Positions 1 to 16,374 of a stretch of DNA of 52,497 nt are shown here, in pieces. The first letter of the stretch is position 1; the number at the start of each line of letters is the position of its first letter. Under the pieces are notes generated by a model. It saw only the letters and a list, made by a program, of their open reading frames with translations, searched no databases and had not been told where the DNA came from. Source of the stretch: Candidatus Zixiibacteriota bacterium (GTDB lineage: Bacteria; Zixibacteria; MSB-5A5; GN15; FEB-12). The stretch is taken from contig JBGSIV010000304.1 of the NCBI GenBank assembly GCA_041742355.1, positions 1-52,497 on the forward strand. The letters are read 5' to 3'. A program made the position numbers and the translations under genes.

Positions 1-915
1 CACAAAGCCATAGATCTCTGGCCGGTTGCCAAGCGCACGAATTTCTGGAACTCTCAGGACTCATTCCGTAAGGCAGTGGATCTTGATCGGTTCAGGCAAA
101 GTCCGCTCCTCAAGGCGTTCATCAATACCGTTACCACCGACCTATTCGACCAGTTGGTCCGCGTCTCGGATCCAGGGGTTCGAGACAGCGATGGACGGCT
201 CCAGGTGGACCGCGTCATCGTATCCGGCCGGTGCGCCCGCTTTACACCTCTGCAGGATGCCCTAAAAGAGTGTCTGCAGGTTTATACAACGTTGCCCGCT
301 GGAAACACTATCTTTCTCAGCGGATCTGAACAGAAGGATGCTGTGGCAAAGGGAGCACTCTACGCTGCAGCACAGTCGCTGTCGATTAAGCACCGATCGG
401 TGGATGCATACTACGGAGTTCTCTACTTGGCCAAGCCGGGCCAGTACGAGTTCCTCACGGCCCTGCGACCGGGGAATGGCTTGGACCCTGCTCACACAGA
501 GGCTATTGCCAAGCATGTGGGTAACGAACTGCACATCGAGTTCCCACCGCGCGAGATCAGGTACAGTCGCTCGGTTTGGTTGTTGCGCAGCTATACGGAA
601 ACACCGCATGAGGATTTCCTCCGGGAACGCACCGGTATGTTTTCAGACGTCGCCAGGCTCGTCTACGATATGGCACCCCAAGGCCCGCAGTCGATAGTTG
701 TGACCGCGCAGATGCTGCCCGGCAATCGTGTCGGCAAAGTCAGGCTCAAAGTAGGCAATCGGATGACGCAGTACGACAGCGCCAATCAGTCGCTCGAAAT
801 GAACCTGCTTCATGAGGAGAGTATCTGGCCGTTCTGCTCAATGGAATGCCTGCGAAAACACATGAAGGCGCTGTTAGAGGCTGATGACACCACCGGATGG
901 AAGAAACCTCGCTGA
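1..915 (+). CDS. Hsp70/actin-fold ATPase, C-terminal part (5'-truncated by window edge)
   Basis: Frame is open from base 1. VDRVIVSGRCARFTPLQDAL and QKDAVAKGALYAA match the Hsp70 adenosine motif (VILVGGSxRIP) and connect-2 motif (PDEAVAxGA). The C-terminal ~170 aa do not resemble the DnaK substrate-binding domain. Confidence 0.75.
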   Translation, partial: HKAIDLWPVAKRTNFWNSQDSFRKAVDLDRFRQSPLLKAFINTVTTDLFDQLVRVSDPGVRDSDGRLQVDRVIVSGRCARFTPLQDALKECLQVYTTLPAGNTIFLSGSEQKDAVAKGALYAAAQSLSIKHRSVDAYYGVLYLAKPGQYEFLTALRPGNGLDPAHTEAIAKHVGNELHIEFPPREIRYSRSVWLLRSYTETPHEDFLRERTGMFSDVARLVYDMAPQGPQSIVVTAQMLPGNRVGKVRLKVGNRMTQYDSANQSLEMNLLHEESIWPFCSMECLRKHMKALLEADDTTGWKKPR

Positions 916-956
916 GCGGCGGTAGACGCCGGAAACCGTTAGAAGAGGAGACACAT

Positions 957-3152
957 GTGGCCAGTCCCCTGTGGACTCAATGCAGACTTTGGGTGGCATT
1001 TGCGATAGCCGCCGTGATAGTGGTATCGGCACTGAGTCCTCTATCGGCAAAAGCTGGTCCTTCAGAGGGTCCCGAAAATGAATCGCCTCCAACAAACCAC
1101 CGGGACACTTCGATGGATAGAACCGTATCGCTCTATGTCATCGATGGTGCTACGAGCGCCCTCTATTCTTTTGGGCAAGGAAGGTTGTTCGCCGTAGCCA
1201 TGATGTCACCAAGCGCCGTGGAGAAACCCGACAAGGTTGCGGCTCCGGTAGGCGGGAACCCTTCCGATCTGTTATCGCACATAGCGAACTCCGACATAGT
1301 GCAGACTCTTTGCTCTAAACTCAAGATTCAGTTGCCTAGGAGAGCCTCCCTTCGGGATTCAGCGCTGGCAGCCTTTAGCAGTGGGGCCGCCGAGAGTGAC
1401 CGCAAGATTTTGGCCTCGGTGTTCGAGAGCGCGGGCCTGCAGTTCAATATTGTCACGACTTCGGGATTTCCAGAACTGGATGAGAGATTTCCCGGAAGTT
1501 CCCCCGGGGACACAGAGCCGTACCGTAAATGGCTTGAAGTGGTTGCGGTAGCCGGAGAACTGAGAGGTTCTATGGCCCAGCTCCCTGATTCTGCTAGCGC
1601 AGAAGGGGAGGAACTGCGGTTTCGCATCCAGCTGGACTCGAGGAGTGCAAACAGGCTGAGCGTTGGAGCTGTGCCGGACTCGGTCTACGACGTACAGGTT
1701 AACGTTTCGAGAATGGAAATTACGGGAGAGGTGCGAAGGAAGAAATCGGTTTCAGCCGATTCTGCTGGGTCAGTCTCCCTTTTCGTTAGGCCAACCGAAG
1801 GTGATCTCTCAGGAGTTGCAGCCCTGCAAAAGACGATTGCACTAAGCGTACCGCCAGAACCGAACCTGCTCACTATGAAGACGATCATCGCGAGCGCCGT
1901 TGTCGCATGCGTCACAGTCGGAATCTTGGCTGTGGTCCTGATCTTCAGGCGACGGCACCAGTTGCATAATGAACTATCTAAAGTCGCAGGGCAGCCTGTG
2001 TATCCGACAATGCCAGCATCAGCCGTCACAAAATGGCCACCGGTAGATCCCGCGGCTCAGGCATCCACGAGGCTGCTTGACGAGATAGCTCGCCAGTATG
2101 GCCTCGAACGGAGAAGCGCTGAAGGGGAACTTGTATCCGCTGTCAAACGCGATCACCTCAGATCACTTGAGTACGATAGGTTTGTGCAATCGTTGTTTCA
2201 GATGTTAAAGTCGTACGACGTACCAGTCGATGTCGATTGCGGAGCGGAGGGTATTCTTGCGGGTATCAAAGGTGCGCTACAGCGGTGGCACACTGAACAG
2301 CAGGCTGCCTTACAGAGCCAGAAGGTTTTCGGGGACGCGCTGCAGCCACTGGTGGCAGGGAGTGGACGATTCAGAGAGTTTTTTGAGCGAGCAGCCTGCA
2401 ATGCTGGCTCCCCTCCTGCATCTCTTGCCCCTGAAGCAGACCAAATCCGCTTGGCATTGCTCGGGCTGGAACTGGGGGTGAGAGACGAAGATCGGTCGAT
2501 TCGGGCCCTTCACAGGGCTGTCCATCGGCTGTTACAGCCGATGGAGGAGAGGGTCTCGCGGTTGGGCGACAGCACTCTCCTGGAATTGTGGGTCACCCTG
2601 CGAGGCTACCTCGGTGATCCGGTTCCTGAGGCTGCGGTAGTGGCGGGTGCTTGCCCCGATCCACTCGATGTCGGTTGCCAGCAGACCGACTTGAGCCAGC
2701 AATGGAAGGCTGAGTTCCGTCGGTCATCTTACCTAGATCGGGTTGATAGTGGTTATCAGGAGTGCGTCCGGCTCGGGTTCCGTATTCGTACGCTCGCAAT
2801 TGTCACTGCGCCGACTGACGATGCTTCGAAGCTCGCCATCCTTACCGAATGTGATATTCTCAGTAGCGCCTTGGCGAGCCACTTGGCGGTGATTCTCGCA
2901 GCTGCAGACCGGATTCCCCACACTCCATATCCAGGCATGCCATTCGATCGGGCATCCATGTCCAGCCAGGGTGATCTAGCCACGCTGAGCCAATCAGAGT
3001 TCGAGGCTGTGTCCCGCTACATTCAAGACGGGTTGGCGGACGTCGTGGGCGTTGGTTTCGGCGAGTTTGAGGAAGACGCATGGCGGTCGTGCGTGGCACC
3101 AACCCGCGTTGTCCTCAGCCGGTCCCAGAAACCCTTGAAAGGCCGTTCGTAA
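957..3152 (+). CDS. Exported/membrane protein: signal peptide, extracytoplasmic domain, TM helix, cytoplasmic helical region with GrpE-like C-terminus
   Basis: In-frame GTG at 957 follows GAGGAG (945-950); the ORF track starts at 897. Hydrophobic N-terminus ends in AKA. TM TIIASAVVACVTVGILAVVLIF is followed by RRRH. C-terminus PYPGMPFD...VGFG...CVAPTRVVLS resembles the GrpE beta domain. Confidence 0.6.
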   Translation: MASPLWTQCRLWVAFAIAAVIVVSALSPLSAKAGPSEGPENESPPTNHRDTSMDRTVSLYVIDGATSALYSFGQGRLFAVAMMSPSAVEKPDKVAAPVGGNPSDLLSHIANSDIVQTLCSKLKIQLPRRASLRDSALAAFSSGAAESDRKILASVFESAGLQFNIVTTSGFPELDERFPGSSPGDTEPYRKWLEVVAVAGELRGSMAQLPDSASAEGEELRFRIQLDSRSANRLSVGAVPDSVYDVQVNVSRMEITGEVRRKKSVSADSAGSVSLFVRPTEGDLSGVAALQKTIALSVPPEPNLLTMKTIIASAVVACVTVGILAVVLIFRRRHQLHNELSKVAGQPVYPTMPASAVTKWPPVDPAAQASTRLLDEIARQYGLERRSAEGELVSAVKRDHLRSLEYDRFVQSLFQMLKSYDVPVDVDCGAEGILAGIKGALQRWHTEQQAALQSQKVFGDALQPLVAGSGRFREFFERAACNAGSPPASLAPEADQIRLALLGLELGVRDEDRSIRALHRAVHRLLQPMEERVSRLGDSTLLELWVTLRGYLGDPVPEAAVVAGACPDPLDVGCQQTDLSQQWKAEFRRSSYLDRVDSGYQECVRLGFRIRTLAIVTAPTDDASKLAILTECDILSSALASHLAVILAAADRIPHTPYPGMPFDRASMSSQGDLATLSQSEFEAVSRYIQDGLADVVGVGFGEFEEDAWRSCVAPTRVVLSRSQKPLKGRS

Positions 3153-4582
3153 TGCCGGCGTTGGAATGTGCAATCCAGTGTCCTCGGTGTCAGGAGGAGG
3201 TTGCCCAGGAACTGGCCGCCTTCTGCCCCTACTGTGGCCACATCCTCATTGTCGACGGAAGAGCGGCAGGTCCGCTGAATCCATACACCTGCCCTCCGGA
3301 GCCATCTCCATCGGGACCGAGCGTCATCGCCGCAGCCAGAGTGCGGACTCAGGCCCCACGCGAATTTCCTCTCGCCGGACCAGTCCTTGACGCAGCTGTA
3401 GCTGGGGACCGGCTAGCTCTCGCGCTCAGCGATCGCTTGCACCTCATCGACTTGAGTTCGAGCGTCACTTCCGGCGAGCTCCGCCATCCTTTCGCAGCCA
3501 GAGAGTATTTGGGCGGCAACCTTATGATAGCTGGCCGCTTCGTTTTCGAGGTGCATGCTGACCGAGTCATCTGGCATCACTATACGGCAGCCCATCTCAC
3601 TGGATCTTACCGATTTATGCCGGAGCTTGTTAACGAACCGCTCCTCGGAGCTTTATCTCGTGAAGTCGTGTTCGATGGTGAGCGAACCCTCATTATCGTT
3701 CTCGCTGGCCAGTCAGGGCTCCGGGTTCTACTGGCATACCTTAGCCGCGGACGCCACGACCTCAGACCCAGCTTCACGGAGCGAGTATTCCGTTTCGACA
3801 AGCCGCGCCCACTAGCGTTTATGACCGTCGACAGCAGGGACATGCTCTATGTACTGCCACTACTCAATGAAGATGACACGAAGATCTTCTTCGAGTTCGA
3901 CCTCAAATCTCTCGCAAGACCTAACGGAGAGGCGGTGCTGACCACTAGCATCGCCGCTGGCCTGCCCGATTTCTGCCAACCGAGGTCCCTCGTTTCGAGC
4001 CGCACAAGACGCCTCTGGCATGTCTACAGCGTCGACGGCTATTCGCAACTCGTTTGGCAGGATGGCGAGGAATGGAGTCAGCCGGAGTCCTGTGGCCCGG
4101 TTGCCGTCGATCCTAATGTCCCTCTTGCGGAGATACCGCGGCGCGGGAAACCTCGATTCGATCCTGATCGAAGACTCGCCTACTTCGAAAGCACGACCTA
4201 TGGCTTGGTCACGGCCGACTTTGACAAGAAACTTGTAACGAAGCACTTACCGCGGGTCGCTCAGTTGCTCAATATCGATGAAAACAAAATCGTGTATTCT
4301 ATGGAGCATCTCTGGCCCGCCTACGGGTCGCTTGTCGGATTCCTGCCCGATCGTAGCATCGGGGCCTCCTCCGCGTATTCAGCTTGCTCAATAACTTCTC
4401 CCCCCAATAACGGAAGCTCCGGCTTTCAAGTAAGCAAGTTTGGTCCCATGCTCTCCGGTGATGGGAAGTCCGATGTACCGCTCTACCCGGCGAGATCATT
4501 GTTCTGTCACGACCGACTGATCGCCTTCGGCCAAGAAAAGCTGATGGTGATCCCATACCACGGGAAACCTTTGGGCAAGTAG
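3152..4582 (+). CDS. Zinc-ribbon protein with beta-rich (propeller-like) C-terminal region
   Basis: ATG overlaps the upstream stop (TAATG). N-terminal CPRC...CPYC zinc ribbon, Pro-rich linker, then repeated short beta-strand segments (RLALALSDRLHLIDL, RLIAFGQEKLMVIP). Confidence 0.6.
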   Translation: MPALECAIQCPRCQEEVAQELAAFCPYCGHILIVDGRAAGPLNPYTCPPEPSPSGPSVIAAARVRTQAPREFPLAGPVLDAAVAGDRLALALSDRLHLIDLSSSVTSGELRHPFAAREYLGGNLMIAGRFVFEVHADRVIWHHYTAAHLTGSYRFMPELVNEPLLGALSREVVFDGERTLIIVLAGQSGLRVLLAYLSRGRHDLRPSFTERVFRFDKPRPLAFMTVDSRDMLYVLPLLNEDDTKIFFEFDLKSLARPNGEAVLTTSIAAGLPDFCQPRSLVSSRTRRLWHVYSVDGYSQLVWQDGEEWSQPESCGPVAVDPNVPLAEIPRRGKPRFDPDRRLAYFESTTYGLVTADFDKKLVTKHLPRVAQLLNIDENKIVYSMEHLWPAYGSLVGFLPDRSIGASSAYSACSITSPPNNGSSGFQVSKFGPMLSGDGKSDVPLYPARSLFCHDRLIAFGQEKLMVIPYHGKPLGK

Positions 4583-4599
4583 CTAAGGATATATCTCAC

Positions 4600-5841
4600 A
4601 TGAAGTTATTCATCCTCTTGTGGATTGCAGTTGGCATGGCTGTGCTCACGGCTCAAGGACAGGAGCAAGGGTGCGCCATTCTCTTCGACAACTCCGGTTC
4701 GATGGTCCAGTATTTCACAAAGCAGCAGATGCTTGACGCTGAGCAACTGGTGCTCGACCTGGCGCTGGATGGGAAGGTCGATGAGACCAAGTGGGAAGTC
4801 GTCGGAGATCGCAGTAAGCTCAAGCCTCTTTGGCAGACCGGACAGCGACTGTATCTGCATGCGTTCGGCCAGCTAACGTCCGACGTTGAACCATTCTTCC
4901 GAATCGTGCCAAGCTACGGCGCCCCTCCCTCGCGGGCAGAAGCCGAGCGGGTCATCAGATCTGAATTGCTCGATTACCTCGACTTCGGCGACAACTTCAC
5001 CCATATCGAGCTGGCACGAAATCTGGCCTGGTGGACGTTTGCGGGCAATAAGACCGAGGCCAATGACAAGCTCTTTATGAATGTTCTGACCATAACCGAT
5101 GGCGTCCCGGATCAGCTCAAAGACCTGTCGTCGGCTGGCAACTACATTCGCCGGGCGTTCACCAGCAACGGCATTCAGGAACGTCATGTCCTTCGTTTCG
5201 AACATCGGGTCCCCTCGCTCAGAGACCCACAAATGCGCCTTGCAGTTCAGTTGGATTATGTTGGTCCGCACTTCTACGTGCAATCGAGTAGCACCACACC
5301 AAGTGACACAACCTCCGACACCACAGTTTCCCGGACGTCCGATGCAATTCGTTTCACTCAGCCGCGTCCTAATACACTGTTTGATGGGCAGTCCAAAGTT
5401 GTGAACCTCCAGTGGATCGGCGAAGGAGACTTCTCGCACTACCTGGTGGAGGTCTTGATGCAGGCGGGCCGCGGCCGGGTCCTGCAGGTGTCGGTGGGCC
5501 GCCAGCAACAGGCGCGCCTCGATATCGCCCGTCAGTTGATGCCCAAGCTGAAGGAATTGCACCAGAAGGAATACCGGCTGATGGCGGTAGTCCGCGGCGT
5601 GTACCAGGACCCAGATCGGGCGCCGCTTGTGTCAGGGCCGATGCCGTTTCGGATAGCGGGGGAGACTCCCACACCATGGGGCTTTATCTGGGCAGGGATA
5701 GGTGCACTGACACTCGGAGGTCTGTTTGCCGCCCAAAGAGTCGGTCTTGTTCAGCGCTTGATGCGCTGGCTGCGTGGCCTTTTGGGTGGAGATACGCCAG
5801 CGGACAATGATAGAAAAAGCCACGGAGTTTCGGAGATCTGA
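4600..5841 (+). CDS. Exported von Willebrand factor A (vWA) domain protein with C-terminal TM anchor
   Basis: Signal peptide; MIDAS motif ILFDNSGSM, FTHI Thr and ITDG; Ser/Thr-rich linker; beta-sandwich-like domain; TM WGFIWAGIGALTLGGLFAA. Confidence 0.8.
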   Translation: MKLFILLWIAVGMAVLTAQGQEQGCAILFDNSGSMVQYFTKQQMLDAEQLVLDLALDGKVDETKWEVVGDRSKLKPLWQTGQRLYLHAFGQLTSDVEPFFRIVPSYGAPPSRAEAERVIRSELLDYLDFGDNFTHIELARNLAWWTFAGNKTEANDKLFMNVLTITDGVPDQLKDLSSAGNYIRRAFTSNGIQERHVLRFEHRVPSLRDPQMRLAVQLDYVGPHFYVQSSSTTPSDTTSDTTVSRTSDAIRFTQPRPNTLFDGQSKVVNLQWIGEGDFSHYLVEVLMQAGRGRVLQVSVGRQQQARLDIARQLMPKLKELHQKEYRLMAVVRGVYQDPDRAPLVSGPMPFRIAGETPTPWGFIWAGIGALTLGGLFAAQRVGLVQRLMRWLRGLLGGDTPADNDRKSHGVSEI

Positions 5842-5861
5842 CTCTTTAAGGAGGGATATAA

Positions 5862-6275
5862 ATGCACTGGTTATTGGCCGCCCTCTTGGGCGGATTGCTA
5901 GCAAATGCGCTCTGGTATGTGCTCGCAACCATAGCAGTTGGCGCGGCCGCCATCGTCGCCGTACACTTTCTGTTCTTCAGCCTTGCTGTGAGTCTGAGCA
6001 AGTTCAACTCGGCTTCTCTGAGCGGCGGATTCGAGTATTCGCTTCACCGTCAGTGGCTCTCAAGCCTGATATATTTGATTCTGGGCATACTGCTGCTCAT
6101 CGAAGTTGTCGTCGGATGGCAGCTGAGTTGGTTCGGCGGTTGGCTCTTAGTGCTGCCATTGCTGATCCTGCTGCTATTTGCGGTGGTGATGTCAATCGTA
6201 GCGGCCAGGCGATTTCGCGGCCGCCACAACCGCCTTGCAGGTCTGAGATCAGCGATGAACAAGACGAGTAAGTGA
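5862..6275 (+). CDS. Small multi-pass membrane protein
   Basis: Strong RBS (AAGGAGG); about 4 hydrophobic segments and a basic tail; stop lies within 10 nt of the next start. Confidence 0.7.
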   Translation: MHWLLAALLGGLLANALWYVLATIAVGAAAIVAVHFLFFSLAVSLSKFNSASLSGGFEYSLHRQWLSSLIYLILGILLLIEVVVGWQLSWFGGWLLVLPLLILLLFAVVMSIVAARRFRGRHNRLAGLRSAMNKTSK

Positions 6276-6283
6276 GGTATGAT

Positions 6284-9200
6284 ATGGCGCATGGTTTAGC
6301 AGAACTCCGCCTCTTTCGCACGCTAGTCCTCGGCGTGGGGACCTCGGGCAAGCAGGTCCTCGAGGGGCTGCAACAGCTATGGTTCGAGCGATTTGGCAAC
6401 CTGAACAGTTCGTTTCTTCTGCTCGTGAATATCGAGACCGAGCAGGCCGGCGCGAAGCCCACCGCCGATGCCGGCTCAATGATTCACCAGTGTTTCATCA
6501 AGAATGTCGAGCAATTCAAGGATATTGAGAACCGGCTTCGCAGCTCGGATGTCCCTGCGTTCGTGAAGCGCTATCCGGAATCGCAGCACCACTGGGAATG
6601 GATCACCAAATTCGTCCACGCATCGTCAGTGCAAGGCGGTCCGGGGCTGGTTGGTGGCGAGATGAGAGGCACGGGACGTCTTCTCCTTCACGGCAAGAAT
6701 GACAAAGGCGTTCCTAACTATCAGGTAGTGCAGGGCTTCATCGAACAGCTCGTAAAAAAGCATTGGCCCAGTTTCAATCAAGCAGGTTTCCCTATCGAAA
6801 AGCAGATCTACAGAGATTTCGGCCTTGAATCTGCCGACTGGGATGACAAAGATAAGCCCGAACTGGATCAGGACGGGCTCATGCGGTCAAAGAAGAACGC
6901 CTACTTCGATCCCCTACCCAACATCTATGTAGTCGGCTCCCTCACCGGCGGCACCTGCTCCGGTATGGCGTTCGATCTCGGCTATCTCCTCCAGGAGATT
7001 TTCGGGTATCCGGTCAACGGCGCGGTTGTCGGCACCCAGACAGCCGGCATCTTTATGATTCCCCCGGTCGAAGGGGACGCACTGGCCAGGTCCGTCAACC
7101 TGCCACGGGTGCGAGCCAATGCCTTTGGCGCCCTCTATGAGCTACGGAAGCTCTACCGGGACTTCCGCTCTCCCAATCGCATGCCATTCGGTACCACTTA
7201 CTTGTGCGCTCCTGAGTACAACAGCACACAACACGACGATACCATCCACTTCGACGGCCTCATCGAAATGGTCGCACTGCGAGTATTCTCGCTTGCCTTG
7301 GGCTACCACGATAGACTTACGTCCAGCGTGAAGAATCAGCTGCAGGGAGGGTCCGAACCGTTTTTCGGCTTCGGTATCGGGGCCGCAGTCTATCCCAAGT
7401 ACTCCCTCGTGCTCAAGGGCACCTACGAGTTGCTCGCAAACCACTATGCACGTCTGACGGACAAGGATGACTATCGCGATCTCGGTGGACGACAGCAGAA
7501 GATTCTGGAGTCTTCGATTCGTCAGCGGGTCCGTGCAAAGGTTGACGAATGCATGGATCGTATGTTTGCAGTCGTCCACGCTGCCGCAACAAGCGCTAAT
7601 CTGTCACTGGACGCTGCTGCCGATGAATGGGTTGAGAAGCTCTCAAAGAAGGAAGTAAGTGAACAGGATCTGGTAGATCAATTTCTCCAGCCAGCCGGAC
7701 AGTTCAACGATATGGGCAAACGTGGCCAGCAGATGCTGGCTGTAGTGGAGGAGCTTATTGACAAAGATTGCGTCAAGCAGCTCGAGATATCCACCAATCT
7801 GATATACGTGAAGCAAACCTTAATCATGTATGATTTCTGGTTCGACCGTATGGGGGACCTCCTTGCCGCGCAACAGGCTAACACGTTTGTGTCAACGGGC
7901 TTCAAAGAAAAGGTAGCGGCTCTGCTTTCCGAGTGGCGCATCTGCAAGGGTGTGGACAAGCGAAGGTATCTTCAGCTCCTGCTGGCCCTGCTCTTGGAAA
8001 AGGCAGCAATTGCTCATTGCAGCGAGCAGATAGACGCCATTCGTGAACTGATTAAGGTGAAGGTCAGTGCCGTCGCATCTGCCATCAGTCGGCTCGGCGA
8101 ACAAATCCCGAAGTTGCGCGAGGAGGAGAACCGATACGACGACCGCCTTGTCGATGACGATTCCTATGCTCCGGTGACAAAGATGTTCTATGTCAACCAG
8201 GACAAGGACTACGACGCTATGAAGAAGGGGTTCCTCGGTGACGACGAGGCAGCCGAGATACAGTGGTCCCTGTTAGCGCCAGTCGGCTTGGGACCCGATA
8301 TTCTCTGGCAACATGTGTGTACTGAGGGAACCAAGGCTGCCGTCAAGGAAACTGTCATAAATGATGGCGACACCCATGCTAATCGCGATTCACTGCAGCA
8401 GCGCCTCGTCAATCACATCAGGCGGGAGTTGATCATCTCTCTGAACAGATACCTGCATCCGAAGAATCAGCAGGTGGGATTCCGAGCCAGTGCGAAAGTT
8501 TGTGAACCGCATCATGCTGCTGCCGTCGCCAAGATGTTCAAGCGCGTGCGGGCCGGTCTGCTCAAGTACCGGGCCACCGAAGAGAGGGGTCAAGTCGCGC
8601 GTCACCTGCTGGGCAGTGAAGACAAGGGTGAACTCGCCAAGGTGATCGTAGAGTTCGGGCTGGACCAGGATCCTTACAAGGTAGGACCATGTGAGCTCGC
8701 CCTTGCCGGCGATCAGATCATTCACACCCGCGACATTCCCTGCCTCGAATTTGAGCGGATGGCCGCGTACAAGCAGCTCAAGGACAGTTTCCTCGAACCA
8801 CCTGAGGAGGCCTTGGTCGATAGAGGCGGGGAGTCGCGCGAGGATATGATACGCAACTGGCAGGCAGTCCGACTGACACTGAATGGGGATGCTAAACTGA
8901 ATGGGGAGGTTGATTTTACGCTCATCGACACCATGAAAGTGGAGCGCCTCAAGGGACTCCTGGCGTTCGTACGATCTTTCTGGTTTACTCCGAATGGCCC
9001 TGCCGACACCGCCGTGCTTAACGTGCCGAAGGCACAAGTTGGTCAGAACGGAATGGCAACTTCCTCGGGATGCTTCGTCCGGTCGAGCGATTGCAGGAGG
9101 ATCCTGGCGTTCAGAGATGACTCGACCAAGGCCTGCATCGAGCTCGACGTTGATGATACTACGGCGTACCAGCTGAACGTCCTATGTAGGTACGAACCGG

Positions 9201-9460
9201 TGTATGCCAAGTTCATGTCTTACATAAGCAGCCAGATAGGACCGCACAAGGACCAGGGCGGACTGACCCACCTGAAAAACCTCGACAGCTTCTTTATGAC
9301 AACGATCGCCGATACTGTTCCCGTCAATGATCGACCGAAGGTCAAAGAGAGCCTTTTTGGCGATGTACAGTTTGACAAGATAACCAGCGCTGACGAGATC
9401 CACCGCAAAGACTGTGTCGTGAGTCGGGCTTTCAAGATCCTGGCCGAATTGAGAGGATAG
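6284..9460 (+). CDS. FtsZ/tubulin-like GTPase (Tubulin_2 / FtsZl1-type) with long helical C-terminal extension
   Basis: TLVLGVGTSG (T1 loop), RGTGRLLL, IYVVGSLTGGTCSGMAFD (tubulin signature variant) and ANAFGALYEL are typical of Tubulin_2 proteins. ATG at 6284 follows GAGGT; alternative GTG at 6272. Confidence 0.8.
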   Translation: MAHGLAELRLFRTLVLGVGTSGKQVLEGLQQLWFERFGNLNSSFLLLVNIETEQAGAKPTADAGSMIHQCFIKNVEQFKDIENRLRSSDVPAFVKRYPESQHHWEWITKFVHASSVQGGPGLVGGEMRGTGRLLLHGKNDKGVPNYQVVQGFIEQLVKKHWPSFNQAGFPIEKQIYRDFGLESADWDDKDKPELDQDGLMRSKKNAYFDPLPNIYVVGSLTGGTCSGMAFDLGYLLQEIFGYPVNGAVVGTQTAGIFMIPPVEGDALARSVNLPRVRANAFGALYELRKLYRDFRSPNRMPFGTTYLCAPEYNSTQHDDTIHFDGLIEMVALRVFSLALGYHDRLTSSVKNQLQGGSEPFFGFGIGAAVYPKYSLVLKGTYELLANHYARLTDKDDYRDLGGRQQKILESSIRQRVRAKVDECMDRMFAVVHAAATSANLSLDAAADEWVEKLSKKEVSEQDLVDQFLQPAGQFNDMGKRGQQMLAVVEELIDKDCVKQLEISTNLIYVKQTLIMYDFWFDRMGDLLAAQQANTFVSTGFKEKVAALLSEWRICKGVDKRRYLQLLLALLLEKAAIAHCSEQIDAIRELIKVKVSAVASAISRLGEQIPKLREEENRYDDRLVDDDSYAPVTKMFYVNQDKDYDAMKKGFLGDDEAAEIQWSLLAPVGLGPDILWQHVCTEGTKAAVKETVINDGDTHANRDSLQQRLVNHIRRELIISLNRYLHPKNQQVGFRASAKVCEPHHAAAVAKMFKRVRAGLLKYRATEERGQVARHLLGSEDKGELAKVIVEFGLDQDPYKVGPCELALAGDQIIHTRDIPCLEFERMAAYKQLKDSFLEPPEEALVDRGGESREDMIRNWQAVRLTLNGDAKLNGEVDFTLIDTMKVERLKGLLAFVRSFWFTPNGPADTAVLNVPKAQVGQNGMATSSGCFVRSSDCRRILAFRDDSTKACIELDVDDTTAYQLNVLCRYEPVYAKFMSYISSQIGPHKDQGGLTHLKNLDSFFMTTIADTVPVNDRPKVKESLFGDVQFDKITSADEIHRKDCVVSRAFKILAELRG

Positions 9461-9470
9461 GAGGTAAACA

Positions 9471-10229
9471 ATGTACGTTAAAACATATCGCGGTTTTTCC
9501 GAAGTTGAGCACGTTGCCAAGAAAGCCAAAAGCCGCTGGCTGTTCATACTTGTCACCGGCATCGTGCTACTGGTTGCCGGCGTCCTGGCAGCCGTACCGC
9601 TCTTCACCGGACTGCCTGCCCTACCCGATCTTCAGGGGTTCGCACCGCGCTCGGACATGCCCGGCGTTGTTGTCGTTGATGTATCCGGCCGAAGTGGAAG
9701 CGGCTTCTTTGTCGCCACTGACCTTGTCCTTACGTCAGCGTACGTCGCGCAGACTGTCGGCGAGTCCGCTACGATTAGAAACAGCGAGGGGAGTGAGCTT
9801 ACGGGACAAGTGGTCGCCACAGGCTTCGCGGAATGGTCAGCTGCAGCAGGCTCGTCTGGTGCGGCGGAGGACGACTATGCCGTTGTCAAAGTCGCTTCCC
9901 AGTTACAGATTGCTCCTCTCATGTACGGCACCGTCGCCAGCGTGTCCCCGAAAGCATCACTCGCTGTCGCATCGCTCGAAAGTGACCAGGTGGTACTTCA
10001 GCAGTTCACGGCCCGGCGACTGGATGGCTCCCTTATCATATTGGACGAGTTACCGGACTACCAACTGATTGGAGGGCCCGTGCTGCAACTCGAACGGGGT
10101 GAGGACGCCTCCTCCGCTCTCGTGGTAGGCATGGTCGCCTCCCCCGAAAACAATTCCGGCGACGGCGGTGCTGCAGTGGGAATCGACGTCGTACGAGAAA
10201 AGTGTCGGGCAAAGGGAGTTAGTTTTTGA
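9471..10229 (+). CDS. Membrane-anchored trypsin-like (S1) pseudoprotease
   Basis: N-terminal TM. GSGFFV...VLTSAYVA (His to Tyr), DDYAVVKV (Asp retained), QLIGGPV (GNSGGP Ser lost). RBS AGGAGG. Confidence 0.75.
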   Translation: MYVKTYRGFSEVEHVAKKAKSRWLFILVTGIVLLVAGVLAAVPLFTGLPALPDLQGFAPRSDMPGVVVVDVSGRSGSGFFVATDLVLTSAYVAQTVGESATIRNSEGSELTGQVVATGFAEWSAAAGSSGAAEDDYAVVKVASQLQIAPLMYGTVASVSPKASLAVASLESDQVVLQQFTARRLDGSLIILDELPDYQLIGGPVLQLERGEDASSALVVGMVASPENNSGDGGAAVGIDVVREKCRAKGVSF

Positions 10230-10251
10230 CGATGTTCATGGGAGTGAACGA

Positions 10252-13200
10252 ATGAGATGCCCAGCTTGCAGCTTTGAGAATCTCCACGACGGGCGATACT
10301 GCACGGAGTGCGGAGCAGCATTTGTCCGACTTCTTGCTCCTACTCATCTCTACAGCAAGGTAGCTGACGGGTTTATCAGCCGCGTCACGTTCCAGTACGA
10401 GTCTGCCTACCCCGCTTCGGAGCGCCTTGAGCTGGTCGGAGTGGGCATTCGTTCCGCTGATGGCGGGACCGTAGAAGCAGTGGAGGTGAGCGTGCCGCTG
10501 AACGCTACCGGTCACCGGCAAACAACCTCAGTCAATCTGAGCCTCGAACGTCTCCGCGGTGATGAACCGGTGCTGGCATGGTTGGAGTGGAAGGTACGCC
10601 GCGGTGAGCGCGTGTTCCCCGCCGAAAGAACTCAGGTATGGGTCGCTCTTTTTCCGTTCGTCTCCGCGGCATTTGACCTGATTGCCGGCTCCGCCATCGT
10701 GCTTAGCCCCGTAACCGATTTTATGGCTCCGGTGCGGATCAAGCTGGGTACGAACAGCCGGATACCGTTTCAAGGACTCATATTTCAGTCGCAAAGCCTC
10801 GCCCGGATAGACGGCCCTCCGAAGCGATTCATCGTCCGCCTGCCGAATGGAGGCCACGAAGTTCTGACCGGCGGCCGGAGCTTCACTCAATCGCTTGATT
10901 TCAAGCCTATTGGTGATTTCCTCGAGGGCTTTCGGACAGGCAATGCGCCTCCCCTCAAAGCGACGCACGTTCTCTGCGGCGATGATTCGGGGGAGCCGTT
11001 CGAGATAGCCCTGTCCGGGGCTGCGGAGGTTCCCTTCCGACTGGCTGCAGTACCCCGGATCGAACTTGGCATCTGGCGGTCAACTCGATTTGGATTCGCC
11101 TGCATCACGAAAAATCGACTCCTCAGCGAATCAACAGCCGCAGATGAGGGCCAGTTTCTGTGCTCACCTGCGCTCGGGAGCTTGATGCACGACGGTACCA
11201 TCGAACGTAACAAGGCCCTGCGAGATAACGCCATTGAGTCGGAACTTGTGGCCCTGGGCAACCGGCACCTCCGCATCCTGGCCCCTATCGGCGGTACCCG
11301 GAGACGGCGATTCCAGGTCTTCCTCAATTACCCTCGCGATGAGCGGGAAGACATCGGCGTGCATCCTCATTGCTGTCACATACGCGTTACACCACTTCAG
11401 CCGCAAAGCGATGAAACCGGTCTCACGCCAGACCGGGTCCGTTACACCAGCCTGCTGCGGGGTGAAACAGTGCATTTGGGGGAACTTCTCTCTCTGGGCA
11501 ATATCCGCGATGGGGCCGGCTTCTGGCTTACCGTCACAGTCCCTGACGATATCCCGGCGGATACTGAAATCGACCTCCGTCTTGAACTGCTTCGGTGCCG
11601 GCCTGACGGCCAGATTATTCAGTTCGCAGACCCGATTCCACCTGTGACTCTCACAATTGCCTGTTACCAACGAGTCATCAATGATTTTGCTTTGGCAATC
11701 GACTTTGGTACGTCAAATACCTGCGTGGCCGGCCCCAGAATCGATTACTCCAATCCGAAACCACAGGAGATGGCAGACTGCTACGCCCTTGATTTCTATC
11801 GCGAAGGTACCGCTGAGGGCGGGCACACTACCTTTGCCACCGCGGTCGCTTATCCCCGACTCGAAGACTCAGAGCCGTACATCGCCGATGTCATGCAGCC
11901 GTCCAGTTCCAGCCGGCCCGTGGATCACATCTACACCGGCTTCAAACTAGAGTTGGTAGAGGAACTCCAGAACGCTGAGCGGTTTGCCGGAGACCAGCGG
12001 CGACCAACAAGACTCGTAGCGGATTTCATCACGTGTGTGCTCGAACGTACCGAGCTATATTATGAGGACCGCAGGAGCCGGTATACCGGATTCCAGATCA
12101 TAGCGGCGAGCAGCCCGGTTGGGTTTGTTCCCGAACTCAAGACTTCGCTGGAGGACGCAGTGCTACAGCGACTGAGGCCCCGCTACGCACAAATCGAGTT
12201 CGCGTTCCGAATTCATGAACCCCTCGCCGTATTCTTACAGGCCGCTTCCGGTCACCTGCTCGGCGCAGCCCCGTCCGGCCCCTTCCTTATCGGCATCGTT
12301 GACATAGGCGGAGGCACGACCGATACCGCCTTTATCCTTGCGGAATCGGGGAAACCGCTCCGGCTGGTCGGCACCGGCGGCAGCGTCTACGTGGGTGGCT
12401 TAACCTTTGACGCCTGGCTACGATACCGGCTCCAGCGGCGGCCGGTGGAAGCGGAAACGGTGTCTGCGGCGCAGCTGCCGATGACTCGGCTCTCGGATGT
12501 ACTCACTCAGGAGGAGCGCAAACTTTCGGGCGGAGTAGAGAGAAGTCTGTCCAATGACATTGCTTCCTTGAAACATCGTTTGGCACCGTGCGCCCAACCG
12601 TCCCCACCGCCGGCTCCCATGGTACCCCTATCGCCTGCGGCTGAAATGATTGGAATCCCTTCGCGCGAACCGAATAAGGCCGTTATCGCCGCACGCGTTG
12701 CCCAGGTGGCCGAGCGACTCATCCCTGAGGGATCGCAGTGGTCTGCGGCAGAATGGGACTCGCCGGCGACGGTGTCATGGCATCTTCTTTATCCATTCTA
12801 CTCTTCACTCTACGAACAGCTTCTGCGGATCATCGAAGACACGATGGATGAATGCTTCGCGAATATGGACTCCGAAACCATCTTGCCGGTGCCCGTTACC
12901 ATTGTGCTCGCAGGCAACTGCTCTCAGATCGCCGGGTTACCCACCCTGGTCGAAGCTGTCTTCAACGGGTTGTCGAAGGTCCAGCGGATCGCATCCCTCA
13001 AGATCGTCGCTATGCCGCGTCCGAAGGAATCAGTCGCTTTGGGAACGTATGCGGAGGCACAGGGCAGTATCGTTCGTCAACCCGAACCGGGGTTGCCGCC
13101 GTTCTGCATGTATCTCCGGGTTGATTCTGCTGGCTTCGGCGTTCCTCTGGCAACGCTAGTGGACCGCCAGAAGGACCAGTGGGGCATCGTCATCTTTCCC

Positions 13201-13524
13201 GAAGGCGCCTTCCACAACGTGCCATCGTCTCAGAAATATCTCGTGCGTGTATTCGCATTACAGGACATTCTGAAAAGGCCAACGGATACCACGGTGAATG
13301 TCTGGCTGAAAATTGGTATCGACGACTTTTCAAGGCGTATCAAGATTATCCCGATTGGTCCGGCGCCGGACAGACTGGCATTCGTCTTGGACCGGCATAC
13401 GCGGCCGTGGGCCCTGGCGTTTTCGACCCCCCAAATAAACCAGCCGATTGACAATATGGATATCGACCTGACAGAACTCACACGATTGATGAAAGAAGCA
13501 ACAGCTGCAATGAAGAACTCATGA
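10252..13524 (+). CDS. Zinc-ribbon + beta-rich region + Hsp70/actin-fold ATPase
   Basis: ATG at 10252 after GGAG. CPAC...CTEC ribbon. Full Hsp70 NBD motif set: AIDFGTSNTCVA, SSPVGF, RIHEPLA, IVDIGGGTTDTA, VGGLTFD, IVLAGNCSQI, PKESVALG. Confidence 0.85.
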   Translation: MRCPACSFENLHDGRYCTECGAAFVRLLAPTHLYSKVADGFISRVTFQYESAYPASERLELVGVGIRSADGGTVEAVEVSVPLNATGHRQTTSVNLSLERLRGDEPVLAWLEWKVRRGERVFPAERTQVWVALFPFVSAAFDLIAGSAIVLSPVTDFMAPVRIKLGTNSRIPFQGLIFQSQSLARIDGPPKRFIVRLPNGGHEVLTGGRSFTQSLDFKPIGDFLEGFRTGNAPPLKATHVLCGDDSGEPFEIALSGAAEVPFRLAAVPRIELGIWRSTRFGFACITKNRLLSESTAADEGQFLCSPALGSLMHDGTIERNKALRDNAIESELVALGNRHLRILAPIGGTRRRRFQVFLNYPRDEREDIGVHPHCCHIRVTPLQPQSDETGLTPDRVRYTSLLRGETVHLGELLSLGNIRDGAGFWLTVTVPDDIPADTEIDLRLELLRCRPDGQIIQFADPIPPVTLTIACYQRVINDFALAIDFGTSNTCVAGPRIDYSNPKPQEMADCYALDFYREGTAEGGHTTFATAVAYPRLEDSEPYIADVMQPSSSSRPVDHIYTGFKLELVEELQNAERFAGDQRRPTRLVADFITCVLERTELYYEDRRSRYTGFQIIAASSPVGFVPELKTSLEDAVLQRLRPRYAQIEFAFRIHEPLAVFLQAASGHLLGAAPSGPFLIGIVDIGGGTTDTAFILAESGKPLRLVGTGGSVYVGGLTFDAWLRYRLQRRPVEAETVSAAQLPMTRLSDVLTQEERKLSGGVERSLSNDIASLKHRLAPCAQPSPPPAPMVPLSPAAEMIGIPSREPNKAVIAARVAQVAERLIPEGSQWSAAEWDSPATVSWHLLYPFYSSLYEQLLRIIEDTMDECFANMDSETILPVPVTIVLAGNCSQIAGLPTLVEAVFNGLSKVQRIASLKIVAMPRPKESVALGTYAEAQGSIVRQPEPGLPPFCMYLRVDSAGFGVPLATLVDRQKDQWGIVIFPEGAFHNVPSSQKYLVRVFALQDILKRPTDTTVNVWLKIGIDDFSRRIKIIPIGPAPDRLAFVLDRHTRPWALAFSTPQINQPIDNMDIDLTELTRLMKEATAAMKNS

Positions 13525-14207
13525 TTGATCTTGCCAACATCATCGCGCGGGAAACAAGCACATTTCGGGATCGAGTACTATCGCTCATCGATCGAGCGGC
13601 CTCCCGAGGCCTTTTGACTGAGGATGGCCGAGCGAAGCTGACGAATCACATTGTGCTGTGTGTCATGCCTTTGGTGCAGGAGGACGAAATCCGACAGCTT
13701 GCTTCCCTGTCCACACCAGTGGGAACCGTTCCCGAAATCACCACCTCCAGCTACATGGCAGGCGGTACTGAACCGCTCGTTACGTCCTGTAACGCAGATA
13801 ACGCCACAGGGGAACAATCTTCTCCTCCGAGTCTGCCGGAGAGAATTGCCTTTCTCACGGAAGCTGACTCGGATGATCTGCATCGGATCTTGCGTGCCTT
13901 TGTTGATTCGTACGCGCCGGAGGTGAATCCAGAAACTTCAGCGATCGAACAGGCCCTGGTGAAGAACCGCTCAATTGACATTCTCGTCATCCACGCCCCC
14001 CTTGGCGAAGACGCTTCAGCCGCTGTCGGATTTGAACTGGTCTCTCGCCATATGGCGCGGACACGTTTAACGGAAGAGGAGCGTGGGCGCCTGGCGAGTA
14101 TCAATCTCAATTCCGAAGACCGGCCAGGCGTCATCATTCTCGAACTCTCCCCACGTATCTTGATTCGTAACGAGGTGGTTCATGCTGGGCGGGCTGTCAC
14201 GACATGA
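13521..14207 (+). CDS. Hypothetical protein with GrpE-like C-terminus
   Basis: ATGA overlap with the Hsp70-like gene. Helical N-terminus; ends PGVIILELSPRILIRNEVVHAGRAVTT, resembling the GrpE tail (G.V..V...GY.L..RV.R.A.V.V). Confidence 0.5.
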   Translation: MIDLANIIARETSTFRDRVLSLIDRAASRGLLTEDGRAKLTNHIVLCVMPLVQEDEIRQLASLSTPVGTVPEITTSSYMAGGTEPLVTSCNADNATGEQSSPPSLPERIAFLTEADSDDLHRILRAFVDSYAPEVNPETSAIEQALVKNRSIDILVIHAPLGEDASAAVGFELVSRHMARTRLTEEERGRLASINLNSEDRPGVIILELSPRILIRNEVVHAGRAVTT

Positions 14208-14249
14208 ACCGGCGGCGTTATCCCACTTCACTCGAGTGAGGGTCTCTTT

Positions 14250-14651
14250 GTGATCATGAAAGTTCTGGTAGTCTGCCTCATCGTAGCGTCAGGAGGTACT
14301 GGCTACTATTACGGATTCGAAAGAACTTTGATGCTTTCGGAGATTGTTGGCTCATCCGACGATCCGACCGTAGAGCTGGCAGTCACCCTTTTCGATTTCG
14401 ACACCGGCTTGACCCGCTACGATCTGTATCACTTGTCCCGACGGGCCCCAGAATGGAGCAGCCGCATGGAGGAGATCGATGCCATGGAAGATTGGGAGGA
14501 GCGGCAGCGGCAGCAGCATCTGCTCACAGCGGAAATGATGCGTGACCCTTCCATGAAGAAGGTCATGAAGAAACTGTTCGGGATCAGTACCAGTGCAGCC
14601 AAAGCGGTACTGAGTGCCGTTTCTAGTTTCAAGTCATTCGGTTTGTTCTAG
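14250..14651 (+). CDS. Hypothetical protein with N-terminal signal/anchor
   Basis: 133-aa ORF with hydrophobic N-terminus, co-oriented and 42 nt after the operon; start could be ATG 14256. Confidence 0.55.
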   Translation: MIMKVLVVCLIVASGGTGYYYGFERTLMLSEIVGSSDDPTVELAVTLFDFDTGLTRYDLYHLSRRAPEWSSRMEEIDAMEDWEERQRQQHLLTAEMMRDPSMKKVMKKLFGISTSAAKAVLSAVSSFKSFGLF

Positions 14652-15076
14652 GCTGTTCTGAGCCTCTCGAATTTCACTTCGGAAATGGCTGCGGTCGCTC
14701 TAAGCCGCAGTTGAGCCATTGCCCCGCACTCATCCACAACTTCGACACGATATGAGTCGCTTTGGGCCCGTTCGTTTCTCACTCAGATAACCTCCTTTAC
14801 GCGAGTTTCCCCCAGCCCTGGTTCACAGATTTGGCGAGGAGTTCTCCTGTTCACAGCAATGCTCCCCATTAGGGTAGCGATTTCTAAGATAGTCCTCGTA
14901 GTTGGATCGGGATTTCCTGCATCCGATTCAGCGTCCGGTAGCAGGGCGCCGAGTTCAAGTCCGTCTCGTAGTATGCAACAATCGGTCGACCGACCTCGAT
15001 CGACCGCTCACAGGCATTGATCTGTTCCCGCCGCCAGATCACTTCCTCATTAATCGTCCGCCTCTGCCGATCGGTA

Positions 15077-15682
15077 TCAGTATTTCCCTTCTGATTGCCA
15101 TGGCAAGCCAGGGCCATCTCCTGCCACGAACCGGGCAGCCAGAGCGAATCCTCCTTCCCCGTCGTTCAGGAAAACAGAGACGCTGTCAGAGTTCATGTTG
15201 GCGAGGGCCACGTCGCCATCACTATCACTATCCAAGTCAGCTACCACAAAGCCCGAGGCACCGTCCGTATTGTAGGTGGCGGGAGACGCAAGAATTCCAC
15301 CGCCATTGTTAAGCAGGATGGATAAACTCTTAGATGCCACATTGCTTATCGCTAAGTCGGGATCACCGTCGCCATCCAAATCGGCCGCTATGATGAAGGC
15401 TGGCGCTTCTCCCCCGGAGAAATAACTGGCTGGCGGGGAGAAAGTGCCATAGCCGTTGTTGAACAGAACCGAGACACTTCCAGCGGATATGTTGGCAACG
15501 CAGAGATCCAAGTCACCATCTACGTCGAGATCAACTGCAACGACATCGTTCGGCCCATCACCAGCCCGGTAATCCTTACGGGCCTCGAGGAGCTGCTGAG
15601 AGGAGAGGTTCGCTGCGGACAGCAACGTAAGGGTGAATACTACCAGTGACGTCTGTGAAATGCAGTACCGCGATGACGTCAT
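15077..15682 (-). pseudogene. Truncated FG-GAP/VCBS repeat secreted protein
   Basis: Signal peptide and three DLD.DGD.DL.V.N repeats; sequence turns non-repetitive right after GDGP and stops, too short for a complete propeller. Confidence 0.6.
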
Positions 15683-16374
15683 TACTTCCCCGCTCAGTTA
15701 CCAGCTTACTATCTATCTACTTGAAGAGAGCACACTCAGGCGAGGGTCCCCACTCATTCTGGGTGCGATGGCTTTGGGAGCCTGAGAAGGACAAAAGCGA
15801 CGAAGGCCTCAAGGCCGCCAACAAAGTCATCAACGAGATTGTCATTTCAACATTGGATGGTTTCCTGCAGTCGTCGATCGGCCGAGCTGCCCTGCCAAAA
15901 TCCTCCTTTCAGAGGAGAAACCGCCCTGAGAACGTCGCAGCTTAACACCAAGGTATTTAAGTGGATAGAGATGTCAATCGACATCTCGCGCCACGAGGCC
16001 GAACTTGAATTCGAGATCACCTGGTCGACCCGCGGCGCCAAACAGCCGCCCCCCTCGCGGAAGAAACGGTCTCGCGCCAGGTAAGTGCTCGGGCCTCCCG
16101 TGTCTTAGCTGGATCCGATGTCTCCATATTCAATCTGTTCAGAAATCGGGCTTGCCGTAGCCGCGCGCGCACGTATCTTACTGCCGGCGGTTCCGATCCC
16201 GGCTGGCTGTCCGCGCCCCGAAGCGGCGCCGTGCCGGTGGAACCGGCTGTTTTGACCGCACGTTACTAGTCTGACACGAACCGCCCCGCGCGAACCTGCC
16301 CGCGGCAGCATGTCGCGGCGACACACGAAGGAGACACAGAGGCGGGTGAGCACCGACTCATCCCCCCGCAACCT

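Follow-up and report, generated by a model that had tools for sequence, protein, structure and literature searches.

A nine-gene operon of the FtsZl1-vWA kind with two Hsp70-fold ATPases in a Candidatus Zixiibacteriota genome

We analyzed a 52,497-nucleotide (nt) stretch of DNA, here called the window, from a Candidatus Zixiibacteriota bacterium (assembly GCA_041742355.1, contig JBGSIV010000304.1, hereafter C304). The window is the start of this contig, one of 310 in a 4.37-Mb genome that is 93.8% complete, and our genome-wide negatives apply at that level. Positions 1 to 14207 form an operon of nine co-oriented genes, A to I. It joins a tubulin-like GTPase (F) with an exported von Willebrand factor A-type (vWA) protein (D), a trypsin-fold protein (G), and two Hsp70-fold ATPases (A and H). 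It is an FtsZl1-vWA operon and is not a member of the GAP1/DO-GTPase or Zorya systems. The gene order recurs in four distant relatives, and the operon is a horizontally acquired island gene set. We tentatively propose, at somewhat less than an even chance, that in this envelope-spanning set a trigger at the envelope would lead the Hsp70s to control how a tubulin-like polymer assembles, with defense as the probable purpose. New here are the recovered start of A, the operon boundary, a core-and-module pattern, a split tubulin domain in the model of F, and losses specific to this copy.

Ten co-oriented plus-strand open reading frames (ORFs), labeled A to J, fill positions 1 to 14651. The spacings from A to I are, in order, 41, -1, 17, 20, 8, 10, 22, and -4 nt, and most of these junctions carry a purine-rich stretch that resembles a ribosome-binding site. 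TAATG is read at 3150 to 3154 and ATGA at 13521 to 13524. The GC content is 0.565 across the operon and 0.61 past 16300. A terminator-like hairpin after I likely marks the operon end; alone its support is weak, with 3 such sites per 2.5 kb versus 1.5 +/- 1.2 in shuffled sequences. A sequence-only reading of this DNA had counted at least nine to ten tightly spaced, co-oriented genes. Nine of them stand, and the tenth, J, does not: it has a 42% paralogue in an unrelated context on contig C122, and it is absent after I in three related loci (L013, L178, and L179). Hydrophobic segments are present in B, D, E, G, and J; that reading had noted four membrane-associated members. Among the 10 proteins A to J, only F exceeded a Pfam cut-off (Tubulin_2), and PADLOC and NCBIfam gave no meaningful match. 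Run X1, possibly the source sample of the window, yielded contigs that cover 68 to 16000, with zero differences in the five long records listed.

F matched Pfam Tubulin_2 (PF13809) with 74.4 bits against a cut-off of 27, as expected from its earlier assignment as a tubulin-like GTPase. We built an AlphaFold2 model from 11 sequences (predicted local distance difference test [pLDDT] score, 78.4; predicted template modeling score, 0.76). Foldseek with this model returned CetZ, tubulin, and FtsZ. Aligned with VIA-align, CetZ matched residues 10 to 851 of the model (Z score of 22.7 over 308 residues; root mean square deviation, 4.2), FtsZ residues 8 to 312 matched across model residues 10 to 821 (Z score of about 20), and tubulin residues 1 to 425 covered model residues 10 to 888. 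In the secondary structure of the model, a strand at 360 to 369 is followed by helices (372 to 757) and then by further strands (773 to 819). The model thus predicts a complete FtsZ/tubulin core (about residues 10 to 820 or 884) whose C-terminal domain would be split, after its first strand, by a helical insertion of about 400 residues (about 372 to 770). FtsZl1 proteins are defined by a central coiled coil and a mostly helical C-terminal part, and the model secondary structure of F has both. In the accessible portions of Makarova and Koonin (2010, PMC2875224), FtsZl1 could not be aligned past H5 and no C-terminal similarity was found; in the F model, by contrast, the FtsZ C-terminal domain is present but split. 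The accessible text of Santana-Molina et al. (PMC9871819) likewise gives FtsZl1 as lacking FtsZ_C and Tubulin_C, and it left FtsZl1 out of its 2023 tubulin phylogeny for a seeming lack of the C-terminal domain. A split but present domain would make polymerization of F a concrete, testable prediction.

The T1 and T4 loops of F are intact and agree with a census of 43 sequences. In the T3 loop, F has Val and Glu where 42/43 and 35/43 sequences have Gly, and each of these two residues is found in 1/43 sequences. An Asp conserved in 35/43 sequences is Asn in F, as it is in 8/43; we would guess that this is the catalytic Asp.

Two Hsp70-like ATPases had been claimed for the operon, and both were borne out. 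H is composed of a zinc ribbon, about 450 amino acids (aa) of beta-rich domains, an Hsp70-fold nucleotide-binding domain (NBD; about 470 to 950), and a short C-terminal domain. All five Hsp70 NBD motifs are intact (phosphate 1, connect 1, phosphate 2, adenosine, and connect 2). The H profile matched 79 PDB sequences at E <= 0.01 (best E, 6e-7). The 60 listed were all of the Hsp70 family (DnaK/Hsp70), and their best-scoring stretches all lie inside the NBD. Pfam gave weak matches of H to FtsA and HSP70. Zinc-ribbon motifs had been noted earlier, and C and H gave weak Pfam matches to zinc ribbons. No peptide-binding domain or lid was detected in the Hsp70-fold ATPases by profile matches to PDB, and no DnaJ or J-domain match was seen at E <= 1 among the 10 proteins A to J. 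The housekeeping dnaK and grpE lie on a separate contig, C263.

The window holds only the end of A. The sequence-only reading had pointed to an upstream contig, and we traced the first 841 aa of A to one end of contig C99, which a profile built from A and three relatives matched with an E value of 1e-50. The 841-aa frame is open at the contig end, has the phosphate-1, connect-1, and phosphate-2 motifs, and ends a few alignment columns short of the beginning of A in the window. The two contigs have no terminal overlap, and no bridging contig across window position 1 was found in the runs examined. Therefore, the join is drawn from collinearity. With the C99 part counted, A has all five NBD motifs. 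A profile comparison of A with H gave 98%. A relative of A in locus L069 matched Pfam HSP70 (E, 4e-10), and the L069 family compared with A gave 99.5%. This copy of A, with the C99 part counted, has no membrane segment; the protein begins about where the membrane segment of its counterpart in an Acidobacteriota metagenome-assembled genome (L089) ends.

The same reading had named two GrpE-like proteins. This stood weakly for I, and no test supported it for B. In a global hhalign comparison with 16 GrpE sequences, I was collinear over 108 columns (12.7%) and scored 20.9, where 40 shuffles reached at most 11.7. The local mode gave 2.2%, and an earlier test with three sequences in local mode was not significant. 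The nearest named Atlas cluster to I was GrpE at 0.85, which is a lead only, and Pfam and PDB searches with I gave no GrpE match. We consider I a probable, weakly supported GrpE-fold protein and a candidate exchange factor of H, as judged from sequence. Its N-terminal membrane anchor is absent from the window copy and present in 4/4 relatives, in one of them via fusion to B. The anchors lost from A and I were not located elsewhere in the genome.

B has a signal or anchor, an exported domain, a transmembrane segment near residue 323, a cytoplasmic helical bundle, and a C-terminal end in which GrpE-like motifs were seen by eye only. Local and global hhalign of B against GrpE gave 0.1 to 0.2%, and B against I gave 0.1%. 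When a GrpE-head hidden Markov model was run on 808 C termini, 19 of 22 B/I-type ends were listed, at ranks from 6 to 393, and the B of the window was not among them; this gives no distinct GrpE signal. The B model (mean pLDDT, 54) is a four-helix bundle whose last 70 residues fall under pLDDT 50. It had no Foldseek match at E <= 0.001; its fold matches were generic four-helix bundles (best Z score, 12.5), with GrpE absent from the rows listed. Gene position makes B a candidate nucleotide-exchange partner of A. B follows A in L008/L087, L089, and L014; wherever the genes are intact, the candidate exchange factor comes directly after its Hsp70; and across clades the pairs A/B and H/I are retained or lost together. 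A natural B-I fusion (735 aa) occurs with A in L014 (16615-22457, minus strand), inverted and facing C-D-E-F-G-H. The fusion suggests that B and I act in one complex.

The remaining genes encode C, D, E, and G. C matched Pfam Zn_ribbon_3 with an E value of 1e-4, under the cut-off; by appearance its body is propeller-like, and C is a candidate adaptor. C homologues occur in L008, L013, L014, L015, and L089. The claim of a vWA protein with a metal ion-dependent adhesion site (MIDAS) was well founded. The MIDAS of D is complete, with DNSGS and the invariant T134 and D167 in 10 sequences, and one sister-clade member of the D family matched Pfam VWA_2 (E, 3.6e-5). E lies directly 5' of the tubulin gene in relatives, and its profile weakly matched the E families of the two sister clades (26 to 34%). 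The relatives with which G aligns match Pfam Trypsin_2 (E, 1e-16 to 1e-21). The H-D-S triad is found in 21/23 G-family sequences and reads Y-D-I in the window copy, with His changed to Tyr, Asp kept, and Ser changed to Ile. The window G is thus predicted to be catalytically dead. The dead protease named earlier holds for this copy and not as a family trait. Profiles of C, D, and I searched against PDB gave no informative match.

Table 1. Positions of the operon genes and of neighboring features (window coordinates unless a contig or locus is given)
Feature	Position	Strand	Description
A (end)	1..915	+	Last 304 aa of an Hsp70-fold ATPase of about 1150 aa: NBD end and C-terminal domain
A (start)	L176:2-2524	-	First 841 aa, at the end of contig C99
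B	957..3152	+	Single-pass membrane protein; start GTG 957 or ATG 897
C	3152..4582	+	Soluble; N-terminal zinc ribbon, then beta-rich body
D	4600..5841	+	Exported vWA protein; beta-rich second domain; C-terminal hydrophobic anchor
E	5862..6275	+	Small membrane protein with four transmembrane segments
F	6284..9460	+	FtsZl1/Tubulin_2 GTPase, 1058 aa
G	9471..10229	+	Membrane-anchored trypsin-fold protein
H	10252..13524	+	Soluble Hsp70-fold ATPase, 1090 aa
I	13521..14207	+	Probable divergent GrpE-fold protein, 228 aa
Hairpin	14226..14241	+	Terminator-like, after I; likely operon end
J	14256-14651	+	Small exported or anchored protein
FG-GAP repeat gene	15077-15682	-	200-aa exported protein, abrupt end
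TonB-C gene	L176:2621-3892	-	424-aa membrane protein, co-directional with A
Island protein gene	G000:C99 7724-13918		2064-aa exported multidomain protein (spans L176/L177)
CRISPR array	L177:~6780-7300		9 identical 29-nt repeats
Serine recombinase gene	L177:9689-11210		Large; directly adjoins tRNA-Ser(TGA)

We then asked how far the gene set extends. A search of 1.84 billion representatives with F gave 108 relatives at E <= 0.001, the best at 26 to 35% identity; F had no relative among viral contigs. Word-indexed protein searches found two others with F, and with H and B only the queries themselves. Scans gave 48 genome loci and 80 metagenome loci, the latter being the best 80 of 138. A FastTree phylogeny was built from 106 N-terminal domains, with duplicates and ORFs shorter than 420 aa excluded. 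In it, F grouped with nine others with a local support of 0.998, and its terminal branch is long (1.15). Of the 14 loci of this type, 13 have D and E ahead of F, and in the remaining one (L009) the contig holds only E. Four distant relatives have the same gene order. L089 has A-B-C-D-E-F-G-H; a second contig of the same genome holds the remainder of H together with I. Genome G287 has A-B-C-D-E-F and a second contig with H-I and an extra vWA gene. L013, which begins within C, has C..D-D'-E-F-G-H-I. L014 has all nine parts, with C-D-E-F-G-H facing A and the B-I fusion on the opposite strand. Conserved co-occurrence in other genomes, set beforehand as a test of the earlier proposal, was thus found in distant bacteria and in the same order. 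Between C and the duplicated D, L013 carries a gene for a 1102-aa vWA-transmembrane-AAA ATPase and a second ATPase-like gene (L013:1094-5642).

The clade of F sits in a larger group of 43 sequences (support, 0.981) that includes two sister clades. The first has tubulins of about 800 aa (one named record, Emticicia, L093) and the order A, a B-like gene, a second vWA gene, D, E, F, and G. Its loci carry a single Hsp70 and lack C, H, and I, and the proteins at the B position gave no match to B. The second (one named record, Acidobacteriales, L096) is represented by L039 (8513-17767), L096, L050, L042, L064, and L086. Here D-E-F is followed by a short triad-less G, an unknown gene, ZorA-like and ZorB-like genes, and another unknown gene. 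ZorB matched in 3/3 such loci tested (E, 3e-9 to 2e-13), and ZorA matched weakly in 2/3. No Hsp70 motif was seen in these loci. Family profiles tie the clades together: D gave 98.6% to both sister clades, G gave 99.6% and 90.6%, and A gave 99.5%. We therefore read D-E-F-G as a predicted core to which Hsp70 pairs or a stator may be attached, and the Hsp70 module looks like an energy input that can be plugged in. Two loci of the 800-aa clade (L053:12411-18964 and L020:11615-18553) share after G a similar set of five or six unnamed genes, part of them for membrane proteins, which may be another plug-in module.

These results place the operon among known systems. Its tubulin and vWA genes confirm the link to FtsZl1/vWA operons drawn in the sequence-only reading. 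Like those operons as described in the accessible text of PMC2875224, it has a protein of about 1000 aa with an FtsZ-like domain at its N terminus, a coiled coil, and a helical tail, an adjacent exported vWA gene with an intact MIDAS, small membrane proteins, and a patchy spread. Unlike them, it has no P-loop GTPase, kinase, or OmpA gene. Two Hsp70-fold ATPases, each paired with a partner of its own, and a membrane trypsin are not among the FtsZl1-vWA features described there. The supplement of that paper, as far as available, lists a Magnetospirillum locus (amb2957-2961) in which three vWA genes accompany a 1626-aa 'DnaK', a 1083-aa 'GrpE' of Chloroflexus (Cagg_1315), and a Gemmata locus with a serine protease. 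The earlier statement that the set is not a characterized system agrees with PADLOC, NCBIfam, and the literature, with the qualification that single FtsZl1-DnaK and FtsZl1-GrpE neighbors were tabulated there in 2010. The literature searched gave no account of the gene set and, for FtsZl1 proteins, offered functions only as predictions (subscription journals, bioRxiv supplements, and the source data of Kaur et al. were outside its scope).

The GAP1-N2 DO-GTPase systems, in the accessible portions of Kaur et al. (2020, PMC7159879), also occupy mobile, membrane-associated neighborhoods with tubulin and vWA, or HSP70 and GrpE, and some of their loci have a second HSP70 without a peptide-binding domain. 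Kaur et al. predict a conflict role and the regulated assembly of cytoskeleton-like complexes; the hosts are mainly Firmicutes and Actinobacteria. However, the tubulin and HSP70/GrpE themes do not overlap in those systems and share one operon here, and the core DO-GTPase and GAP1 genes are both absent from our operon. No DO-GTPase match was found among the 10 proteins A to J or the 6 upstream proteins scanned, no GAP1 domain was found in these scans, and GAP1-M had 0 matches in the genome. The only DO-GTPase2 match of the genome (34.4 bits) lies in a 730-aa protein (G000:C5:2252-2881, minus strand, L181), an orphan GTPase of the conflict-system family. At the level of sequence, FNIII had no Pfam match in the 10 proteins A to J.

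Zorya is made of a ZorAB stator and effectors. The operon shares with it an envelope-spanning layout with cytoplasmic NTPases, and ZorA/ZorB-like genes occur in the sister clade; unlike Zorya, it has no ZorA, ZorB, nuclease, or helicase. PADLOC gave no Zor match at E <= 0.1 in the 10 proteins; with this library, ZorB is detected in the sister clade. DnaK-DnaJ-GrpE shares with our set the Hsp70 NBD motifs and, in I, a probable GrpE fold, but the set here has long N-terminal extensions, a zinc ribbon, no detected peptide-binding domain or lid, and no J protein. Type III CoCoNuT (PMC11090510) is alike in recruiting Hsp70-like domains into predicted defense systems. It differs in being McrBC/HEPN-based with degenerate Hsp70-like domains, and the accessible text mentions no tubulin or GrpE.

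The operon is an acquired island gene set because island genes lie upstream, close relatives of F were found in no other genome of the phylum, and the other Tubulin_2 proteins of the host's family that were placed in the tree lie outside the clade of F. Across 285 genomes of the phylum, the profile of close relatives of F matched one, the window's own, and 0 of the 284 others. Pfam Tubulin_2 matched 4/61 genomes of the host's family, and these other matches, where placed in the tree, fall outside the clade of F. One genome of the family has three tandem Tubulin_2 genes (G035:C16:89777-99589; L002, L005, and L006). Upstream of A, contig C99 carries an integrase-core (insertion sequence) remnant, a CRISPR array found on no other contig of the genome, and a serine recombinase beside tRNA-Ser, which is the probable left end of the island. 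Cas1 was looked for in the genome and not found. The 2064-aa exported protein has what we take, by appearance, to be a lectin-like start and a dockerin-like end. A second copy of the tRNA 3' end, which would serve as the right-hand attachment site, was not found in the window. The FG-GAP gene is possibly a truncated gene at the right edge of the island. The TonB-C protein, whose gene lies 93 nt upstream of A, has an unnamed N-terminal domain, one transmembrane segment, a Pro-rich linker, and a TonB C-terminal domain. We rejected its gene as a conserved member of the set, as it is not upstream of A in genome G286.

Alongside the observed parts, order, conservation, and mobility of the operon, we infer each step of a signal chain. 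Periplasm-facing D, the outer domain of B, and G would register damage or a foreign surface structure, with G acting as a protease in relatives and perhaps as a non-catalytic binder in the window copy. E, B, and G would pass the signal through the inner membrane. Inside the cell, I (for H) and probably B (for A) would reload, as exchange factors, the two private Hsp70-fold ATPases, which in turn would govern the assembly or disassembly of F. The inserted helical arm of F would be a likely docking surface, and C a soluble adaptor. D, the outer domain of B, and G would thus stand outside, E, B, and G in the membrane, and F, A, H, I, and C inside. As output, a polymer that depends on GTP and sits at the membrane would contain, seal, or arrest the attacked cell. 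Its likeliest purpose would be defense against phage or other envelope attack. Defense is favored by the mobility of the operon, its fast divergence, the presence of ZorAB-like genes in a sister clade, and what Kaur et al. predicted.

Several observations weigh against this proposal. The operon has no recognizable toxic effector and no PADLOC match. Its relatives' flanks are mostly housekeeping, with specific defense-type matches near 5/16 loci (107 proteins, without a control set): AbiU and PDC-S01 (L053), AbiEi/AbiEii (L093), PDC-S23 (L066), PDC-S01 (L069), and PDC-M51A (L017). The remaining flank matches are generic ATPase, helicase, or nuclease domains. As a GrpE protein, I has weak support, and B gave no significant match. 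Ignavibacteria-type loci (L088, L011/L012, and L017) keep D-E-F with unrelated genes 5' of D and have no C, G, or private Hsp70 nearby, and genome G285 has only weak, housekeeping-level Hsp70 matches genome-wide. The private Hsp70s are therefore dispensable in some lineages. In addition, the window copy deviates from its relatives in four ways: A and I are unanchored, G is dead, and the T3 loop of F is altered.

These deviations raise the prospect that the family is functional and that the window copy is decaying after transfer, with the lost anchors, triad, and T3 loop as the first steps. The four changes are independent, the terminal branch of F is long, and an insertion sequence remnant lies upstream of A. 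Against decay, none of the nine frames is interrupted across 14 kb, the junctions are tight, and G without its triad also occurs in 6/6 loci of the ZorAB sister clade (alignment read by eye). Run X3 shows a synonymous excess: 4/4 differences in G and 5/6 in F are synonymous, where 0.23 to 0.34 is expected by chance, although this comparison comes from two short contigs at a depth of about 2 in one study. Run X2 has a single difference, in H, and it is non-synonymous. We consider decay rather improbable and favor a copy that is rewired and under selection.

An accessory machine for membrane remodeling or a surface structure (vesicle release, adhesion, or cell shape), in which the Hsp70s routinely recycle the polymer and defense plays no part, is a serious if somewhat unlikely alternative. 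CetZ proteins have a role in cell shape and are the best structural neighbors of F. The missing effector, the housekeeping flanks, and the co-directional TonB-C gene fit this alternative as well. Membrane remodeling was proposed for FtsZl1 operons by Makarova and Koonin (PMC2875224), and vWA proteins can serve as motor-coupled force transducers (PMC12204202), in the accessible text of both. However, the very patchy spread, the fast divergence (20 to 35% identity to the nearest relatives), the island location, and the lack of the TonB-C gene upstream of A in G286 speak against it. Much less probable is a dedicated export or maturation line, in which membrane-tethered Hsp70 and exchange factor would move a client through the inner membrane or fold it there, the protease would process it, and F would be a scaffold. 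It would suit the predicted membrane anchors of A, B, and I and the predicted active protease G of relatives, and the 2064-aa exported protein on the island. However, 16 loci show no conserved client gene next to the operon, the match of the ATPases to Hsp70 structures is confined to the NBD, and the operon encodes no J-domain protein.

A more specific form of the polymer proposal, which we regard as unlikely yet worth stating, is an immune or repair cytoskeleton. Either a proton-driven ZorAB-like stator or private Hsp70/GrpE pairs would drive its D-E-F-G core, one standing in for the other, and in the version described here the two Hsp70s would trigger and dismantle the polymer at the site of envelope attack. 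The neighborhoods offer a bounded parts list, the cognate pairs A-B and H-I, and a natural swap of Hsp70 for ZorAB-like genes. For tests, the compact seven-gene version from the sister clade with an Emticicia genome should be more tractable than the window copy. If the modular cytoskeleton is real, it would give FtsZl1 tubulins their first function and would be a bacterial case of a tubulin polymer under Hsp70-driven control. If it is defensive, it would be an effector-less, envelope-triggered system made from cytoskeleton and chaperone parts.

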